51,294 nucleotides of DNA, from contig JAGUYM010000014.1 in assembly GCA_020061305.1 (NCBI GenBank), forward strand, positions 183,920-235,213, in the 5' to 3' direction. This stretch comes from Candidatus Woesebacteria bacterium. Lineage in GTDB: Bacteria > Patescibacteriota > Microgenomatia > UBA8517. Shown in pieces: positions 5,091-36,185 of the stretch (position 1 is the stretch's first letter; each line of letters begins with the position of its first letter). The position numbers and the translations under genes are program-made. The notes under the pieces are model-generated. The model did not search any database and was not told where the DNA came from. It worked only from the letters and a program-made list of their open reading frames with translations.

Positions 5091-6674
5091 ATGAAATGGG
5101 ATGTATTGTATGGTTCGCCGATTACAAATCACAAATCACTAATTACTGCGTTACTTGAGAATAGAGGCTTGAAATCAAAAAAAGAAATTGATGAATTTTT
5201 AAATCCAACTAAAAATATAAAACTTGATATACCTAAAAATATTCTTAAAAGACTTAACGAGGCAAAAAAGAATAAAGAAAAAATTGTAATTTTTGGTGAT
5301 TATGATTGTGATGGTGTTTGTGCAACTGCAATTCTTTGGGAAACAATGTATAAAGAAGGTTTTGATGTAATGCCATACATTCCAGATAGATTTGAAGAAG
5401 GATATGGAATCAAAAGTACAACTTTTGCAAACTCTAAATTTCAAAATCTAAATCCGAATTTAATAATCACAGTCGATAATGGAATCGTTGCTTACGATGC
5501 CATTAAAGAGGCTAAAAAAAGAGGAATTGATGTAATTGTTGTTGACCATCATGCACTTGGAAACAAGAAGCTTACTACACCCTACATACTGCATTCTACT
5601 ATTGTATGTGGTAGTGCTCTCGCTTGGTTTTTATCCCGCGAACTGTCCACTGTTCATCGTTCACTGTTCACGGGTTTAGATCTTGTAGCCCTTGGGACCG
5701 TCGCTGATCAAATTCCACTTTTGGGCATAAACAGATCAATTGTTAAGTATGGACTAGAAGAATTAAACAATACAAAAAGACTAGGCTTAAGACAAATTGT
5801 AAAAGATGTGGGGGTTCAAAATGTTGGTGTTTATGAAATTGGTTTTATGATTGCTCCAAGAATAAATGCTTCTGGAAGACTTCTTCATGCAATTGATGCC
5901 TTAAGACTTCTTTGCACAAAAGACCCCAAAAAAGCAAAAGAATTATCAAAAAAATTAAGCGAGACAAATATTGAAAGGCAAAAAATTGTTGAGGGGGTGG
6001 TTGCAAGAGTACTGGAAGAAACGAGTGATGGAGATAAAATCATGGTAATAAGCGGTGATTATCATGAAGGCGTGATAGGGCTTGCATCAGGAAAAGTAAC
6101 CGAGAAATATTACAAGCCTTCAATAGTTTTATCAGTTGGAAAAGAAGTATCAAAAGCTTCAGCGCGGTCAATTAATGGTTTTAACATAATTGAGGCTATT
6201 AAAGAAACAAATTTAATTTTAGAAGGTGGAGGGCATCCTATGGCTGCCGGGTTTAGTATAGAAACCAGTAAAATTTCAGAATTTAAAACAAAAATAAATG
6301 AAATATCAAAAAAATATCTAACAGATGAGATTTTGGAAAAAAAATTAAAAATAGATTTGGAATTGGATTTTAAATATATAAATATTAAATTAATTGAAAT
6401 TTTAAAAAAGCTTGAGCCATTTGGATATGGTAATAGTCAACCAGTTTTTACTACAAAAAAAGTAAAAGTTGTTGAAAGTAAAACAGTGGGAAGTGATGGA
6501 AAACATCTAAAATTAAAATTAGAACAAAATGGAATTAAATTTGATGGAATATGGTTTAATAATAACCAAACGCCAATAATCAACAATCAATACGACATTG
6601 CATTCACGATTGAAGAAAACATTTGGAATAACAAAACCTTAATTCAATTGAAAATTAAAGATATCAAATACTAA
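5091..6674 (+). CDS. recJ: ssDNA exonuclease RecJ (start re-called from 5073 to 5091)
   Basis: GDYDCDG, TVDNG, DHH, TVAD, APRINASGR, GGHPMAAG, LEPFGYGN. Confidence 0.95.
   Translation: MKWDVLYGSPITNHKSLITALLENRGLKSKKEIDEFLNPTKNIKLDIPKNILKRLNEAKKNKEKIVIFGDYDCDGVCATAILWETMYKEGFDVMPYIPDRFEEGYGIKSTTFANSKFQNLNPNLIITVDNGIVAYDAIKEAKKRGIDVIVVDHHALGNKKLTTPYILHSTIVCGSALAWFLSRELSTVHRSLFTGLDLVALGTVADQIPLLGINRSIVKYGLEELNNTKRLGLRQIVKDVGVQNVGVYEIGFMIAPRINASGRLLHAIDALRLLCTKDPKKAKELSKKLSETNIERQKIVEGVVARVLEETSDGDKIMVISGDYHEGVIGLASGKVTEKYYKPSIVLSVGKEVSKASARSINGFNIIEAIKETNLILEGGGHPMAAGFSIETSKISEFKTKINEISKKYLTDEILEKKLKIDLELDFKYINIKLIEILKKLEPFGYGNSQPVFTTKKVKVVESKTVGSDGKHLKLKLEQNGIKFDGIWFNNNQTPIINNQYDIAFTIEENIWNNKTLIQLKIKDIKY
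5119..6590 (+). repeat. Five separate degenerate 7-mer arrays inside recJ: 5119-5146, 5427-5461, 5572-5599, 5644-5671, 6563-6590
   Basis: e.g. CGATTAC AAATCAC AAATCAC TAATTAC; TGTCCAC TGTTCAT CGTTCAC TGTTCAC; TAACCAA ACGCCAA TAATCAA CAATCAA. Confidence 0.7.
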
Positions 6675-6889
6675 CGACCAACCCCTAAATTTTGCCAGAA
6701 AGATTTTGGTAGGCCTGCTGGCGGTACTTGATCTTCCTCGACAGTGGCGGGCGCTTCCGGTTGTAATTGTTCCTCTGGCACGCCAAAGCCTCGCGCTTGA
6801 TCAGCTGCAGTAATTTCACCTAATGGTTTTTGTTCCGCCACAGGTTCATATTCAAAATTTGGACCTAGATATAATTCTTTTATTGTCAT
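6671..6889 (-). CDS. Orphan 72-aa acidic, Pro/Glu-rich protein
   Basis: ORF with perfect SD AAGGAGGTGA (6905-6896) 6 nt before ATG; has its own promoter and attenuator. Confidence 0.75.
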   Translation of the reverse strand: MTIKELYLGPNFEYEPVAEQKPLGEITAADQARGFGVPEEQLQPEAPATVEEDQVPPAGLPKSFWQNLGVGR

Positions 6890-6914
6890 TATTTTTCACC
6901 TCCTTTTTAATAAT

Positions 6915-6941
6915 AAAAAACCTCTTTTGTAAAAGAGGTTT
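6915..6941 (-). terminator. Intrinsic terminator (3:4 hairpin of attenuator)
   Basis: Minus strand AAACCTCTTTT-AC-AAAAGAGGTTT running into a T tract then ATTATT. Confidence 0.8.
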
Positions 6942-6968
6942 GTCAAAAAAAACAACAAGACAAACCTC

Positions 6969-7016
6969 TTAGTTAAAGAGATTAATAATTGTCTTGACTG
7001 CATTTAATATTTTCAT
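6969..7016 (-). CDS. Putative leader peptide MKILNAVKTIINLFN
   Basis: ATG 7016 to TAA 6969; the stop codon overlaps antiterminator segment 2. Confidence 0.6.
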   Translation of the reverse strand: MKILNAVKTIINLFN

Positions 7017-7028
7017 AAAGCGACTTTT

Positions 7029-7080
7029 AGTTTATAAAACCCAGTTCATAGTTGTCAAGACACAAATTTAAATCTAAAAT
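7029..7080. promoter_or_regulatory. Back-to-back sigma70 promoters sharing the TTGTCAA/TTGACAA -35 core
   Basis: Plus TTGTCA(7052)-17-TAAAAT(7075), ATG 6 nt later; minus TTGACA(7058)-18-TAAACT(7034). Confidence 0.65.
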
Positions 7081-31068: not shown

Positions 31069-31527
31069 ATGATAACTTTTTTTGCAAGTGTTTTAATTTG
31101 GTTAATGTTTTTCGGGCTTGTGGTTTTGTGGATTATTGACGGCAAACACAAAAAAGAAATTGTAATACATGCCTTGTTTGCTTGTTTTTTTGCCTGGGTG
31201 ATTTCTGAAAGTATTAAACATTTTTTCCCAACCTTAAGACCTTATGCGGTTAACGGACTTGACCCTTTAACATTGACTATTCCCATTGATGGGGCTTTCC
31301 CTTCAAGCCATACTGCGGTTAGTGTTGCTTTGGCAGTTTCAATTTTTAAGCACAACAGAAAAATAGGGATGTTATATATAGTAATGGCAGGTTTTGTCGG
31401 AATTGCAAGAATAATGGCGTATGTTCATTATCCATTAGATATAATTGGTGGAGCAGTTATTGGAGTGATAATCGCACCCTTGACATCTAGCAGACACTTT
31501 GCTAGACTGCTAAGTAATAATGATTAG
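31069..31527 (+). CDS. PAP2-family phosphatase (BcrC-like)
   Basis: IKHFFPTLRP, FPSSH, ARIMAYVHYPLD. Confidence 0.88.
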   Translation: MITFFASVLIWLMFFGLVVLWIIDGKHKKEIVIHALFACFFAWVISESIKHFFPTLRPYAVNGLDPLTLTIPIDGAFPSSHTAVSVALAVSIFKHNRKIGMLYIVMAGFVGIARIMAYVHYPLDIIGGAVIGVIIAPLTSSRHFARLLSNND

Positions 31528-33883
31528 AAGTATTCCAATTGTTCCAATTAGAGGGTCGGTAGTTTTTCCCCACACAGATGTTTTGCTATCATTTATCAGA
31601 CCAAATGCGGTAGCTGCTGCCGACGATGCTTTCAAAAAAGACAGGGTGGTTGCTATTTTTGCCCAGAAAGACTCAAGGATAAATGATCCTACAAGAAACG
31701 ATTTGTATGAAATAGGAACATTGGTAACGATAACACAACTTATGCCCTCAGAGGACGGTGTTCATGCTTTGGTTCATGGTCATTCCAGGATAAGGCTTAA
31801 GGAAATTGTTTCCAATATTCCATTTGCTGTTGGGGTAGTTGAGGAAGTAGACGAGAATATTGAACCATCTCCCGAGATTTCGGCACTTTCAAGAACACTT
31901 TCCGATCAATTTAAAGTCCTTTTGTCGATGGGTAAAAATGTTGAGGTTATGTCAATTGTAAAACTAATTGGTGAGAATACTAACCCCTCAGAATTAACGG
32001 ACCAAATAGCTGGGGTTTTGGATTTAAAGCTTAATGAAAAACAAATTCTTCTTGAAACAACACCCATTCTTGAGAGGATGAAGAAAACCAACGACTTTTT
32101 AGCCAGGGAAATAAATATACTTCGGATTGAAAAGGAAATATTAACTAAGACTGAAATGCAATTTAATGAAAACATGAAGAGAAATATCCTAAGGGAAAGA
32201 AAAAGGGCAATAGACAAGGAATTGGGTCAGATGGGAGATGAAGAAAAAGTTGGGGATATCCCTTCGGAAGAAGTTAAGGAATATAAAAAGAAAATAATGG
32301 AGGCTAAAATGCCAAAAGAAGTTGAAGAAAAAGCCTTGAAAGAACTTGAAAAGTTTTCCAAAATGAGTTCATACAATCCAGAGTCGGGTTTTTTGAGAAA
32401 TTATTTGGATTGGTTATGTGATATGCCTTGGGATAAGTTAAGCCCAAATAATGTGGTTATTGCAAAGGCGGCGAAAATAATGGAAGAAAAGCACTACGGA
32501 CTCCCCAAAACTAAAGAAAGAATTTTGGAATATCTGGCAGTAATGAAACTTCTTGAAAAGAGGAGGAAGTCAAATACAAAAGATAGGTATCAACCAACAA
32601 TTTTATGTTTCATTGGTCCTCCAGGTGTTGGAAAAACCTCAATAGGTAGAGCAATCGCAGAAGCTATGGGAAGAAAATTCGTAAGAGTATCTTTAGGTGG
32701 GATTCGTGATGAGGCAGAAATTCGAGGCCATAGAAGAACGTATGTGGGGGCACTTCCAGGACGAATTGTCCAAGGAATAAAACAGGCTGGAACCAGAAAT
32801 CCCGTATTTATGTTAGATGAGATTGATAAAGTTGGATATGATTTTAGGGGAGACCCAAGTTCGGCTCTTCTTGAGGCACTTGACCCAGAACAAAATAGGG
32901 AATTTTCAGACCACTATTTAGAAGTTCCATTTGATTTGTCTGAAGTCTTTTTTATTGCAACTGGAAATGTTCTAGATACCATCCCTCAAGCCTTAAGGGA
33001 CAGGATGGAAATTATACAATTCTCAGGTTACACTGAGGATGAAAAATTTGAAATTGCGAAAAAGTTTATAATTCCAAAACAAATTAAAAATCATGGATTG
33101 GATGACATAAAGTTTTCGATTTCAGATTCCAGTATTAAGACCATGATATCAAGATATACAAGAGAAGCAGGAGTTAGAAATTTGGAAAGACAGATATCAA
33201 CAGTTGCTAGAAAAATAGCCAAACTTGTGGCTCAGAAAAAAACATATCCGAAAGTTATCACTAATGCACATTTATTAAAATATCTAGGTCCGTATAGATA
33301 CACTGCATTGGCCGCAGAAAAAAAAGATGAAATAGGAATGTCAACAGGACTTGCAGTTACAAACTCAGGTGGAGAAATATTGTTTATTGAGGTTTCAATA
33401 ATGCCGGGAAGGGGAAGACTTACGCTAACGGGCCAGCTTGGGGATGTGATGAAGGAGTCAGCACAAGCGGCATTTACATGGACAAGGGCAAATTATAAGT
33501 TACTAGGACTTTCGGCTAATTTTTCTCAAAAAATTGATGTTCATATCCATGTTCCAGAGGGGGCAGTACCAAAAGATGGTCCTTCGGCAGGAACTGCAAT
33601 CACAACCGCTCTTGTTTCAGCATTAACCAAAACTGCGTCAAAAAGAGACACGGGGATGACAGGAGAAATAACCCTAAGGGGAAAAGTTACTGAAATTGGT
33701 GGGGTAAAAGAAAAAACAATTGCAGGCCATAGAGCGGGATTAAAAACAATAATTCTCCCAAAGGATAATAAAAAAGATATGGTTGATGTACCAAAAAGTG
33801 TTAAAGAAGACATTAAGTTTGTTTATGCGACACAGATTGAAGATGTTCTCTCCCACACACTCACTAAATGGCCCATAAAATAA
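31520..33883 (+). CDS. lon: Lon protease
   Basis: GPPGVGKTS, HRRTYVGALPG, PKDGPSAG, IGGVKEK. Confidence 0.97.
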   Translation: MIRSIPIVPIRGSVVFPHTDVLLSFIRPNAVAAADDAFKKDRVVAIFAQKDSRINDPTRNDLYEIGTLVTITQLMPSEDGVHALVHGHSRIRLKEIVSNIPFAVGVVEEVDENIEPSPEISALSRTLSDQFKVLLSMGKNVEVMSIVKLIGENTNPSELTDQIAGVLDLKLNEKQILLETTPILERMKKTNDFLAREINILRIEKEILTKTEMQFNENMKRNILRERKRAIDKELGQMGDEEKVGDIPSEEVKEYKKKIMEAKMPKEVEEKALKELEKFSKMSSYNPESGFLRNYLDWLCDMPWDKLSPNNVVIAKAAKIMEEKHYGLPKTKERILEYLAVMKLLEKRRKSNTKDRYQPTILCFIGPPGVGKTSIGRAIAEAMGRKFVRVSLGGIRDEAEIRGHRRTYVGALPGRIVQGIKQAGTRNPVFMLDEIDKVGYDFRGDPSSALLEALDPEQNREFSDHYLEVPFDLSEVFFIATGNVLDTIPQALRDRMEIIQFSGYTEDEKFEIAKKFIIPKQIKNHGLDDIKFSISDSSIKTMISRYTREAGVRNLERQISTVARKIAKLVAQKKTYPKVITNAHLLKYLGPYRYTALAAEKKDEIGMSTGLAVTNSGGEILFIEVSIMPGRGRLTLTGQLGDVMKESAQAAFTWTRANYKLLGLSANFSQKIDVHIHVPEGAVPKDGPSAGTAITTALVSALTKTASKRDTGMTGEITLRGKVTEIGGVKEKTIAGHRAGLKTIILPKDNKKDMVDVPKSVKEDIKFVYATQIEDVLSHTLTKWPIK

Positions 33884-33916
33884 TTTATTTGATATAATAC
33901 TCCTATTGTTAAAAAA

Positions 33917-33990
33917 GGCCCCGTCGTCTAGTGATCTAGGACACTTGGTTCTCATCCAAGAGATCATGAGTTTGAATCTCATCGGGGTCA
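33917..33990 (+). tRNA. tRNA-Glu(CUC), CCA not encoded, A19/U56 variant
   Basis: GGCCCCG/CGGGGTC acceptor, CTTGG-TTCTCAT-CCAAG anticodon arm, ATGAG-TTTGAAT-CTCAT T arm; TGATATAAT at 33890. Confidence 0.9.
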
Positions 33991-34062
33991 CACAAAGTGA
34001 TACTGTTCAGTTGATGTTGAGGATATTAAAAACATTAATGAAATTATTATAAGTATTTTTGC

Positions 34063-34091
34063 TTGACAACATGGTGTTCTGGAGGTACACT
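34063..34091 (+). promoter_or_regulatory. greA promoter
   Basis: TTGACA-17-TACACT. Confidence 0.8.
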
Positions 34092-34118
34092 TTAAACCTA
34101 ATTATATAAAATTAGTAT

Positions 34119-34172
34119 ATGACAAATCTTTCCAACATGTTTACTGTAATTAGCCTCATTAAGGCTAGGTAA
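34119..34172 (+). CDS. Putative greA leader peptide MTNLSNMFTVISLIKAR
   Basis: 17-codon uORF between promoter and terminator. Confidence 0.6.
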   Translation: MTNLSNMFTVISLIKAR

Positions 34173-34196
34173 TCTGTTGGGGAGAAGGTGGGCAAT

Positions 34197-34228
34197 ATCT
34201 CTCCAAATAGCAGGGGAGATTATTTTTT
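34197..34228 (+). terminator. Intrinsic terminator in greA leader
   Basis: ATCTCTCC-AAATAGCA-GGGGAGAT then TATTTTTT. Confidence 0.75.
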
Positions 34229-34247
34229 GTTAAAAATACATGAAAAC

Positions 34248-34700
34248 ATGAAAAAACAAATACAAGTAACACAAAAAGGATTGGATGCTTTAAAACAGGA
34301 ATTAGAAGAACTAATTAATTTCAAAAGGCCTGCACTTGTTGCCAGACTTTCTAATGCCAGAAGCCAAGGTGATCTGTCTGAAAATAGTGATTATCAAAAT
34401 GCTAGGGAGGAACTTGAGTTTATGGATGGAAGAATTGATGAACTTGAAGCTGTTATAAAAAATTCCGCAGTCGTTAGTGATGTTGATGGCGGTGGAATTG
34501 GTACAAAAGTAACAGTTAAAGTTAATGGGGCAATTCATACATTTGAGGTTGTTGGGGAATGGGAAGCCGATCCGTCAAAGAAAAAAATAAGCCACACTTC
34601 CCCACTTGGGAAAGCCTTAATAGGCAGAAAAGTGGGTGAAAAGTTTGATGTTGAAGCACCAGCAGGCAAGATTACATATGAAGTGGTGGCGATCGAGTAA
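34248..34700 (+). CDS. greA: Transcription elongation factor GreA (start re-called to 34248)
   Basis: ARSQGDLSENSDY, ISHTSPLGKAL, EAPAG. Confidence 0.96.
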   Translation: MKKQIQVTQKGLDALKQELEELINFKRPALVARLSNARSQGDLSENSDYQNAREELEFMDGRIDELEAVIKNSAVVSDVDGGGIGTKVTVKVNGAIHTFEVVGEWEADPSKKKISHTSPLGKALIGRKVGEKFDVEAPAGKITYEVVAIE

Positions 34701-34742
34701 TTTAAATCACCCAGTTTTTTTGCTAGAATCTTATTAGTCATA

Positions 34743-36185
34743 ATGAATACTACAGGAATTAGCGTAATTGAAGACAGATTAAACAAACTTAAAGCAATAG
34801 TAGATATGGGTATAGATCCATATCCTTCTATATTAAAATTTAAACGAGAGGAAATTAAGAAATCTTTAAAATCTTTTGGAGATAAAACCTCGGTTGCCGG
34901 TCGCTTAATGAGCTTGAGGAGCCATGGAAATGTGGTTTTTGCGGACATTGTTGATGAGTCAGGGAAAATCCAACTTTTTTTTCAGAAGAAAAATTTGAGA
35001 GAAAATTTTAAATTTTTAAAACTTATAGATCAGGGGGATTTTTTATCAGTTATTGGAAAAGTTATTAAAACAGTAGCAGGCGAGATATCTATTGATGTAG
35101 AAGATTTTCAGCTTCTAACAAAAACATTAAACCCCCTACCTTCAACATGGTTTGGATTAAAAGATGAAGAAGATAGGTATAGAAAAAGATATTTGGATCT
35201 TTTATTGAATGAAGATTTAAAAGATTTATTTAGGAAAAAGGCTGTTTTTTGGCAAAGCATGAGAGAGTTTTTAGTTAAAAAGGGTTTTCTTGAAGTTGAA
35301 ACTCCGGTTCTTGAAAATACCGCTGGGGGGGCTGATGCCAATCCTTTTGTTGCACACCACAATGCACTTGATATTGATTTATATTTAAGAATTTCTATGG
35401 GTGAACTATGGCAAAAAAGACTAATGGTGGCTGGTTTTGAAAAGACATTTGAGATAGGCAGACAGTTTAGAAACGAGGGAATAAGCAGAGAACATTTACA
35501 AGATTATTCACAAATGGAGTTTTATTGGGCCTATGCCAATTATGAAGATTCAATGAAATTAGTCGAAGAAATGTTTAAATATGTGGCCAAAGAAACATTT
35601 GGGAAATTGACATTTAAAATAAATGGAAATAGTGTTAATTTGGAAAAACCATGGGAGAAAATTGACTACACTGAAACAATTTTGAATAAAACTGGTGTAG
35701 ATATTGGAAAAGTTAACAGTCAAGAACTAAAAGACGAATTAATTAAAAGAAAAATAAAATTTGAAAAAAATGATGATAGTGGAAGGCTTATCGATTTATT
35801 GTGGAAATCAATTAGAAAAGAGATAGTTGGGCCTGTATTTTTGGTTGGCCATCCGGTTGAAGTATCACCTCTAGCTAAGAGAATGAAAGATAGCCCTAGG
35901 TTTGTGGAAAGATATCAGGTGATACTGGCGGGTAGCGAAATGGGTAATGGATATTCGGAGTTAAATGACCCAATTGATCAAGAAGAAAGATTTAAAAAAC
36001 AACAAGAGTTAAGGGATAAGGGAGATGAAGATGCACAGATGCATGATTATGATTTTGTGGAGGCGCTAAAATATGGTATGCCGCCAGTTACTGGGTTTGG
36101 AGTATCTGAAAGATTGTTTTCTTTTTTAGCTGATAAACCAATTAGGGAGGCTGTCCTTTTTCCGTTGTTAAGACCTGTTAAATAA
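34743..36185 (+). CDS. lysS: Lysyl-tRNA synthetase, class II
   Basis: RYRKRYLDL, GGADANPF.AHHNALD, FRNEG, YGMPP.TG.G. Confidence 0.96.
   Translation: MNTTGISVIEDRLNKLKAIVDMGIDPYPSILKFKREEIKKSLKSFGDKTSVAGRLMSLRSHGNVVFADIVDESGKIQLFFQKKNLRENFKFLKLIDQGDFLSVIGKVIKTVAGEISIDVEDFQLLTKTLNPLPSTWFGLKDEEDRYRKRYLDLLLNEDLKDLFRKKAVFWQSMREFLVKKGFLEVETPVLENTAGGADANPFVAHHNALDIDLYLRISMGELWQKRLMVAGFEKTFEIGRQFRNEGISREHLQDYSQMEFYWAYANYEDSMKLVEEMFKYVAKETFGKLTFKINGNSVNLEKPWEKIDYTETILNKTGVDIGKVNSQELKDELIKRKIKFEKNDDSGRLIDLLWKSIRKEIVGPVFLVGHPVEVSPLAKRMKDSPRFVERYQVILAGSEMGNGYSELNDPIDQEERFKKQQELRDKGDEDAQMHDYDFVEALKYGMPPVTGFGVSERLFSFLADKPIREAVLFPLLRPVK

Follow-up and report, generated by a model that had tools for sequence, protein, structure and literature searches.

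A Probable Leader-Peptide Attenuator Upstream of greA in Candidatus Woesebacteria

Introduction

The E. coli greA leader, GraL, was reportedly described by Potrykus in 2010. It consists of 19 nt followed by a terminator, contains no open reading frame (ORF), and is associated with repression in cis by GreA, an effect that is seen only in vivo and with an unidentified helper (Dylewski 2019, PMC6829880). In a survey of predicted attenuators, greA/rnk was placed seventh among the gene families; the leaders were predicted in Enterobacteria, bacilli, and Clostridia, and antiterminators were drawn for Enterobacteria and bacilli with no peptide mentioned (Naville and Gautheret 2010, PMC2965389). Among greA leaders, premature termination is a widespread feature (PMC2965389), yet the input is undefined even in E. 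coli (PMC6829880). When the locus presented here was initially annotated, E. coli was said to have a leader terminator (GraL) and no known translated switch of the trp type, which agrees with both papers (PMC6829880, PMC2965389). A full-text literature search returned no report of a leader-peptide attenuator for greA or of such attenuation in any gene of Patescibacteria. Transcription factors are few in bacteria of the candidate phyla radiation, where mRNAs are mostly leaderless or devoid of a Shine-Dalgarno (SD) sequence.

The present analysis concerns a greA leader from a Candidatus Woesebacteria bacterium (GenBank assembly GCA_020061305.1, contig JAGUYM010000014.1, positions 183,920 to 235,213); the whole stretch of 51,294 nucleotides is referred to as the window. 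From the parts of this leader, their conservation and covariation, and their geometry, it is probable that greA and the genes co-transcribed with it, here probably lysS, are controlled by a ribosome-dependent transcription attenuator of the leader-peptide (trp) type.

The greA Leader and Its Gene Context

The window is AT-rich with a GC content of 35%. The features of the greA locus are listed in Table 1. With 10 of 12 consensus matches, the promoter of the greA leader is the top promoter-like site of the region. This TTGACA-17-TACACT promoter and a 17-codon upstream ORF (uORF) had both been pointed out in the initial annotation, and both are present in the sequence. The stems 1:2, 2:3 and 3:4, the inner hairpin, and the T tract described there are present as well, although the coordinates that were implied for them were off by one in places. 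The 154-nt leader is predicted to fold into 1:2 together with 3:4 (-41.6 kcal/mol, z = -4.26), and none of 200 shuffled sequences was as stable. An Rfam scan of positions 33850-34800, taken up to E = 10, returned only tRNA matches with E < 1, and no riboswitch, T-box, or lysine riboswitch was identified.

Table 1. Features of the greA locus in window coordinates.
Feature	Position	Strand	Remarks
lon	31520-33883		Upstream of tRNA-Glu(CUC)
tRNA-Glu(CUC)	33917-33991		Between lon and the greA leader
Sigma-70-type promoter	34063-34091	+	TTGACA 34063-34068, 17-nt spacer, TACACT 34086-34091
Putative leader-peptide uORF	34119-34172	+	17 codons, then TAA (34170-34172); peptide MTNLSNMFTVISLIKAR
Region 1, TCTTTCCAACA	34127-34137	+	5' arm of the anti-antiterminator; uORF codons 3-7
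Inner hairpin, TAGCCT-CATTA-AGGCTA	34151-34167	+	Arms 34151-34156 and 34162-34167; inside the uORF
AUU-AAG (Ile-Lys)	34158-34163	+	Codons -4/-3 from the stop; only conserved coding feature of the uORF
Region 2, TGTTGGGGAGA	34175-34185	+	Partner of either region 1 or region 3
Region 3, ATCTCTCCAA	34197-34206	+	Shared by the terminator (5' arm) and the antiterminator (3' arm)
Region 4, GGGGAGAT, and T tract, TATTTTTTG	34213-34229	+	Completes the intrinsic terminator; T tract 34221-34229
Stem 1:2	34127-34137 with 34175-34185		11 bp including 2 G.U
Stem 2:3	34177-34185 with 34198-34206		TTGGGGAGA with TCTCTCCAA; 9 bp including 1 G.U
Terminator 3:4	34197-34204 with 34213-34220		ATCTCTCC with GGGGAGAT, then the T tract
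greA, proposed regulated gene	34248-34700	+	150 aa; Pfam GreA_GreB_N and GreA_GreB
Promoter-like site for lysS	34701-34729	+	TTTAAA, 17-nt spacer, TG-TAGAAT; in the 42-nt greA-lysS gap
lysS, class II lysyl-tRNA synthetase	34743-36185	+	Pfam tRNA-synt_2 and OB-fold domain

The GreA protein of the window shares 60-81% identity with its homologues and 64-81% with the closest of them, of which those that are named belong to Woesebacteria, Microgenomates, or Patescibacteria. Several loci labelled as uncultured Gammaproteobacteria fall within the same GreA clades as the others. The start codon of greA is taken to be the ATG at 34248, and not 34249, since the amino termini of the relatives align there (MxKxIQLT). 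A public call of a 157-aa GreA that begins with a TTG at 34227 was rejected because that codon falls within the terminator's T tract and because the alignment with relatives begins at the ATG. Also discarded was a micro-ORF (34240-34251) that overlaps the greA start and had been noted at the outset. While it exists, conservation is lacking, with such a micro-ORF at only 4 of 129 distinct greA starts, so it is attributed to chance and has no role in the attenuator.

No terminator is present between greA and lysS in the window, and as a result lysS is probably co-transcribed with greA upon read-through. The gene also appears to have a promoter of its own in the intervening gap. In the relatives, a TATAAT or TATACT box is located 7-9 nt 5' of the lysS ATG within a gap of 20-60 nt after greA. 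Thus, lysS is probably fed both by its own promoter and by read-through from greA. The two genes are directly adjacent in approximately 50 of the first 80 loci.

A Family of Long Leaders

Two GreA searches, one of genome contigs and one of metagenome contigs, provided 160 loci. A terminator-like hairpin with a CYCUCC/GGAGRG stem is found no more than 90 nt from the greA start in 133 of the 150 loci with usable flanking sequence. Approximately half of these terminator-bearing loci have a long form, in which all four regions seen in the window are present, and the others have a short form. A covariance model of the terminated fold (R1) was built from 16 close sequences. It matches 65 distinct long leaders, all of them on the greA strand, directly upstream of greA, and from Woesebacteria/Microgenomates. 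The distance from TTGACA to the uORF is fixed in nearly all relatives, with mostly 48-53 nt between the -35 element and the ATG.

In the 44 cleanest rows of the alignment, 91.1% of the cells are paired compared to 77.0% in shuffles, and changes on both sides are seen in 21 of 25 pairs. The covariation score is 0.472 against 0.220 when shuffled, with 0 of 500 shuffles reaching it and slid controls at 0.113 or below; since the structure guided the model alignment, in which the ATG columns are included, and since the sequences are related, these shuffle statistics overstate independence and are not to be read as probabilities. A separate count for each helix over all 65 rows agrees with this picture. 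The terminator helix is paired in 98% of cells, and 7 of its 8 pairs change on both sides. The inner hairpin is paired in 86-88% of cells with both-sided changes in all six pairs, and in the larger set of 65 rows the value is 87% against 65% in shuffles. RNAalifold, when run on a plain MAFFT alignment, recovered the terminator only; the model-based alignment was needed for the rest.

Support for the antiterminator comes from per-sequence energies rather than from fixed-column covariation. When columns are kept fixed, pairing in 2:3 does not exceed that in shuffles (72% in both) because the register of GGAGAG/CUCUCC slips between lineages. Over 60 leaders, the mean 2:3 duplex energy is -13.3 kcal/mol with the leader's own partner, -11.6 kcal/mol when leaders exchange partners at random (0 of 5000 permutations reach the native value), and -6.5 kcal/mol when region 2 is shuffled. 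When 33 leaders were folded singly, 2:3 was about as stable as 3:4 in nearly every one. The initial annotation had named covariation among greA leaders as one means of checking the proposal; in this analysis, all three helices are kept with covariation across approximately 65 distinct leaders, 2:3 by way of its energies.

The Leader Open Reading Frame

An ORF that starts with ATG, is 15-21 codons in length, and ends 1-8 nt 5' of region 2 is present in 63 of the 65 leaders, where 3.7 would be expected from mononucleotide shuffles; membership of the family was set by RNA structure through the covariance model. One of the two exceptions is a false match to a short form, while in the other the alignment is truncated although the leader itself has the ORF. 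An unbiased MAFFT alignment shows the ATG to be invariant. Of the 63 leaders, only 6 have an open +1 frame and only 5 an open +2 frame, these frames being closed in about 90%. Three kinds of stop codon are used (TAA 35, TAG 17, TGA 11). Counted from the A of the ATG, region 1 begins 8 nt downstream in 50 of 63 leaders. The ORF has 17-18 codons in 50 of 63, and the gap between the stop codon and region 2 is 2 nt in 33 of 63 with a range of 1-8 nt. An unconserved uORF had been put forward initially as a finding that would speak against attenuation; the opposite was found, with the uORF, its start, and the position of its stop relative to region 2 all conserved in approximately 65 leaders.

The peptides themselves drift, as illustrated by MTNLSNMF..., MKLSPSICYF..., MFTLSPVTK..., and MLAYFSTNF.... 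Over region 1, the reading register varies among lineages (FSN, SPS, LSP, FST), and therefore the frame is kept independently of the RNA motif. Since the peptides drift while the frame stays open, what is conserved is an open frame and not a protein, as is characteristic of leader peptides. No SD sequence precedes the uORF. Only 2 of the 47 long ORFs of the window have a strong SD, and many window genes have a TATAAT-like -10 box 7-9 nt 5' of the ATG, which suggests that leaderless mRNAs are widespread among them. In this genome, the absence of an SD before the uORF is thus nothing unusual.

The uORF has no run of control codons for any one amino acid, and the only conserved codon of this kind is a single AAG at position -3 from the stop. 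At codon -4, ATT is used in 43 of 63 leaders, ATC twice, and ATA never. At codon -3, AAG is used in 36 of 63 and AGG in 6, with no instance of AAA. AAG is the rare lysine codon, with 77 occurrences in the window genes against 351 for AAA. The bases of AUU-AAG also make up the loop and the 3' arm of the inner hairpin, and the exceptions at codon -3 (AGG, UGG, and GGG) are accompanied by compensating changes in that hairpin. Given these compensating changes and the strong preference for ATT over ATC and ATA, the conservation of AUU-AAG reads as mainly nucleotide-level.

Short Forms and Related Leaders

The short-form leaders (L007, L008, L012, L014, L017, L019, L020, L028, L034, L042, L050, and others) have the same CYCUCC/GGAGRG terminator and no uORF. 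Their terminator is only 39-63 nt beyond the -35 element, leaving approximately 5-27 transcribed nt before it. The two forms do not separate on the GreA tree but are interleaved, and the well-supported branches force at least about 21 changes between labels that contain a few known errors, such as L135, which is labelled short and yet is a good match to the long-form model. Sister loci such as L017 (short) and L037 (long) have the promoter and a conserved motif just after the -10 box in common and differ in the uORF/1:2 module. From the interleaving of the forms and from sisters that differ in this module, the terminator is seen as the stable core, and the putative ribosome-sensing module as a part that is easily gained or lost.

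The motif in the first transcribed bases after the -10 box reads (A)UCUCCCUCGUUAGG or ACCUAAUUA and is common to both forms (for example L019, L020, L022, L037, L041); a weaker version is found in the window at 34095-34106. It resembles region 3, could pair with region 4, and also contains a -10-like TAGGYT. A further motif, TTGATAYNNTCTGATTTC, abuts TTGACA on its upstream side in 50 of 161 greA loci (for example L007, L012, and L013) and is absent from the window. Together with TTGACA, it forms three TTGA-like repeats about 11 nt apart that may represent a regulator site or an UP-like element.

The window contains a second candidate leader-peptide attenuator at 6905-7030 on the minus strand, with a TTGACA promoter, the uORF MKILNAVKTIINLFN, and the same architecture as the greA leader. 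Its 1:2 stem is GUCAAGACAA/UUGUCUUG, its perfect 2:3 stem is GAGGUUUGUC/GACAAACCUC, and a strong terminator is present. It is matched by model R1 at 29.7 bits and has a fold z of -3.24. The downstream gene is a 72-aa orphan ORF (6671-6889) that has a perfect SD sequence and no Pfam match.

Canonical lysine attenuators are also found directly 5' of lysS, at L102:1967-2108 and in the greA-lysS spacers of L111 and L016. The leader peptides of L102, L111, and L016 are MNTVNTSKKSSS, MLKLTIYTSKKKFTS, and MKIILVIMKKKTTSF and contain KK or KKK runs, which in L111 and L016 are within the 5' arm of the 1:2 helix. A strong terminator comes after each of the three, and their fold z values range from -3.0 to -4.6. 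The arrangement is suggestive of pheM/pheST-like control of lysyl-tRNA synthetase.

Proposed Mechanism

Transcription is predicted to start approximately 20 nt 5' of the uORF, which is presumed to be translated. On a leader with no ribosome, 1:2 would pair, followed by 3:4, and the polymerase would stop at the T tract. Toeprints generally map 15-16 nt beyond the first P-site nucleotide. For a ribosome that does not fall behind and arrives at the stop codon at 34170, the leading edge would therefore be at approximately 34182-34183, masking most of the region 2 bases that pair with region 3; 3:4 would form and transcription would terminate. The position of the stop codon fits such masking of region 2 by a terminating ribosome, with the footprint size taken from general toeprint knowledge. 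If the ribosome is anywhere between the start codon and about codon -3 while region 3 is being made, 1:2 would be blocked and region 2 would be free. Region 2 would then capture region 3, and the resulting 2:3 stem would prevent the terminator so that greA is transcribed. At one end of this range, a ribosome initiating at the ATG would already overlap region 1; at the other, a ribosome with codon -3 in its A site would have its edge at approximately 34174.

The absence of a run of one codon and the free drift of the peptide point to general ribosome lag as the most likely signal, that is, slow or stalled translation and the loss of coupling between ribosome and polymerase. GreA output would then be tied to ribosome speed, as was proposed in the initial annotation, which fits both the geometry and the absent codon run. 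Loss of transcription-translation coupling promotes backtracking, and Gre factors resolve backtracked complexes. With this function in mind, the leader may even be a dedicated coupling sensor that responds solely to the first ribosome keeping up, or failing to keep up, with RNA polymerase across some 50 nt, a narrower reading that is best regarded as doubtful. If true, it would amount to a direct feedback from ribosome lag to GreA supply in bacteria with small genomes and few regulators, and in the short, GraL-like forms the terminator would have been retained and its sensor lost.

Canonical leader peptides elsewhere in the same organisms, both before lysS and at 6905-7030 of the window, are counted in support of the leader-peptide attenuator for greA. 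Against it stand the lack of a control-codon run, unlike the classical amino-acid attenuators, and the many close relatives that have no uORF module, from which it follows that the terminator can also be governed in some other way. The three metatranscriptomes of the source study gave zero coverage, and an RNA run for the relative L081 yielded only 20-40-nt scraps that derive from relatives.

Alternative Explanations

The main rival to general ribosome lag keeps the same attenuator and has it sense one amino acid: the ribosome would stall at the rare AAG (Lys) codon, and perhaps at AUU (Ile), when charged tRNA is scarce, and so turn on greA-lysS and increase the supply of lysyl-tRNA synthetase. 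This is less likely than general lag and, taken by itself, unlikely, even though AUU-AAG is the sole conserved coding feature of the uORF and AAG, although rare in the genome, is never replaced by AAA at codon -3. The geometry is also favorable, since a stall with AAG in the A site is the last one that leaves all of region 2 free, and lysS is a frequent neighbor of greA. However, only one such codon is present, and it is kept equally well where lysS is not adjacent (L009, L013, L022, L025, L026, L043, L047, L055, L061). Among the greA loci, an association of lysS adjacency with either the lysine codon or the long form was looked for and none was found; lysS follows long and short leaders at equal frequency. 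The hairpin compensation that accompanies AGG, UGG, and GGG, together with the bias to ATT, gives the constraint the appearance of a nucleotide-level one. What is more, the canonical lysine attenuators of lysS carry KK or KKK in region 1 (L016, L102, L111). The existence of these separate attenuators before lysS and the missing link to lysS adjacency make a lysine-specific role of the greA leader less likely.

A different proposal dispenses with the ribosome. The 1:2 helix and the inner hairpin would be bound by a protein, such as GreA itself or another factor, or by a ligand, and the frame would be a by-product of the RNA. Such a switch has precedents, as other phyla commonly have greA leaders that combine a terminator with an antiterminator and for which no peptide is reported (PMC2965389) and E. 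coli GreA represses itself in cis via GraL with a helper that is not identified (PMC6829880). It would also suit the short-form relatives, which retain only the promoter, the conserved 5' motif, and the terminator, and the nucleotide-level conservation of the AUUA hairpin loop. Yet an incidental frame is not expected to be open in 63 of 65 leaders while the other two are mostly closed, and an RNA-only switch leaves unexplained both the invariant ATG 8 nt 5' of region 1 and the three kinds of stop codon placed 2 nt 5' of region 2. Nor does the leader match any Rfam family, riboswitches and T-box included. This proposal is accordingly considered improbable. It is barely credible that the leader is no more than an AT-rich spacer with an ordinary terminator remaining from the upstream tRNA gene. 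While the leader is indeed AT-rich and tRNA-Glu ends at 33991, the terminator is 200 nt past the tRNA and 3' of a conserved promoter, and chance is already contradicted by the fold z of -4.26 and by covariation and ORF conservation throughout the family.

Comparison with Known Systems

The proposed leader-peptide attenuator of greA may be considered alongside trpL, hisL, pheL, and pheM/pheST. In common with these, it has a promoter-proximal short ORF, mutually exclusive 1:2, 2:3, and 3:4 pairings, and an intrinsic terminator, and its stop codon is set such that a terminating ribosome would mask region 2. It differs from the classical attenuators in that it has no codon run for one amino acid, no SD sequence, and a conserved hairpin inside the ORF, and in that its output is a transcription elongation factor and not a biosynthetic or charging enzyme. 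A leader ORF with no codon run is also found in bmrB, which precedes bmrCD in B. subtilis (PMC4191407), and in both cases read-through is expected upon any ribosome stall. The attenuators of the bmrB type control resistance and efflux genes in response to antibiotics, whereas here the output is GreA.

With greA, lysS, and the orphan gene as three examples, bacteria of the candidate phyla radiation appear to use classical ribosome-mediated attenuation repeatedly. In the case of greA, the input can be read from the sequence as a ribosome on a conserved leader ORF, and this offers a concrete, testable way in which the state of translation could be linked to how much of an anti-backtracking factor is supplied.

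With respect to GraL, the likeness is that an intrinsic terminator separates the promoter from greA, so that control would be exerted at premature termination. The short-form relatives, in which the promoter is followed by 5-27 nt and the terminator (e.g., L007, L012, L017, L020), match the GraL layout. In contrast, approximately 100 nt with a uORF precede the terminator in the window; a short, ORF-less stretch of the GraL type (about 19 nt) is absent there, and no sequence similarity between the two leaders was detected. In summary, the leader would function in the manner of a trp-type attenuator and occupies the place of GraL; attenuators in greA leaders are known, whereas no leader-peptide version is known to have been described.
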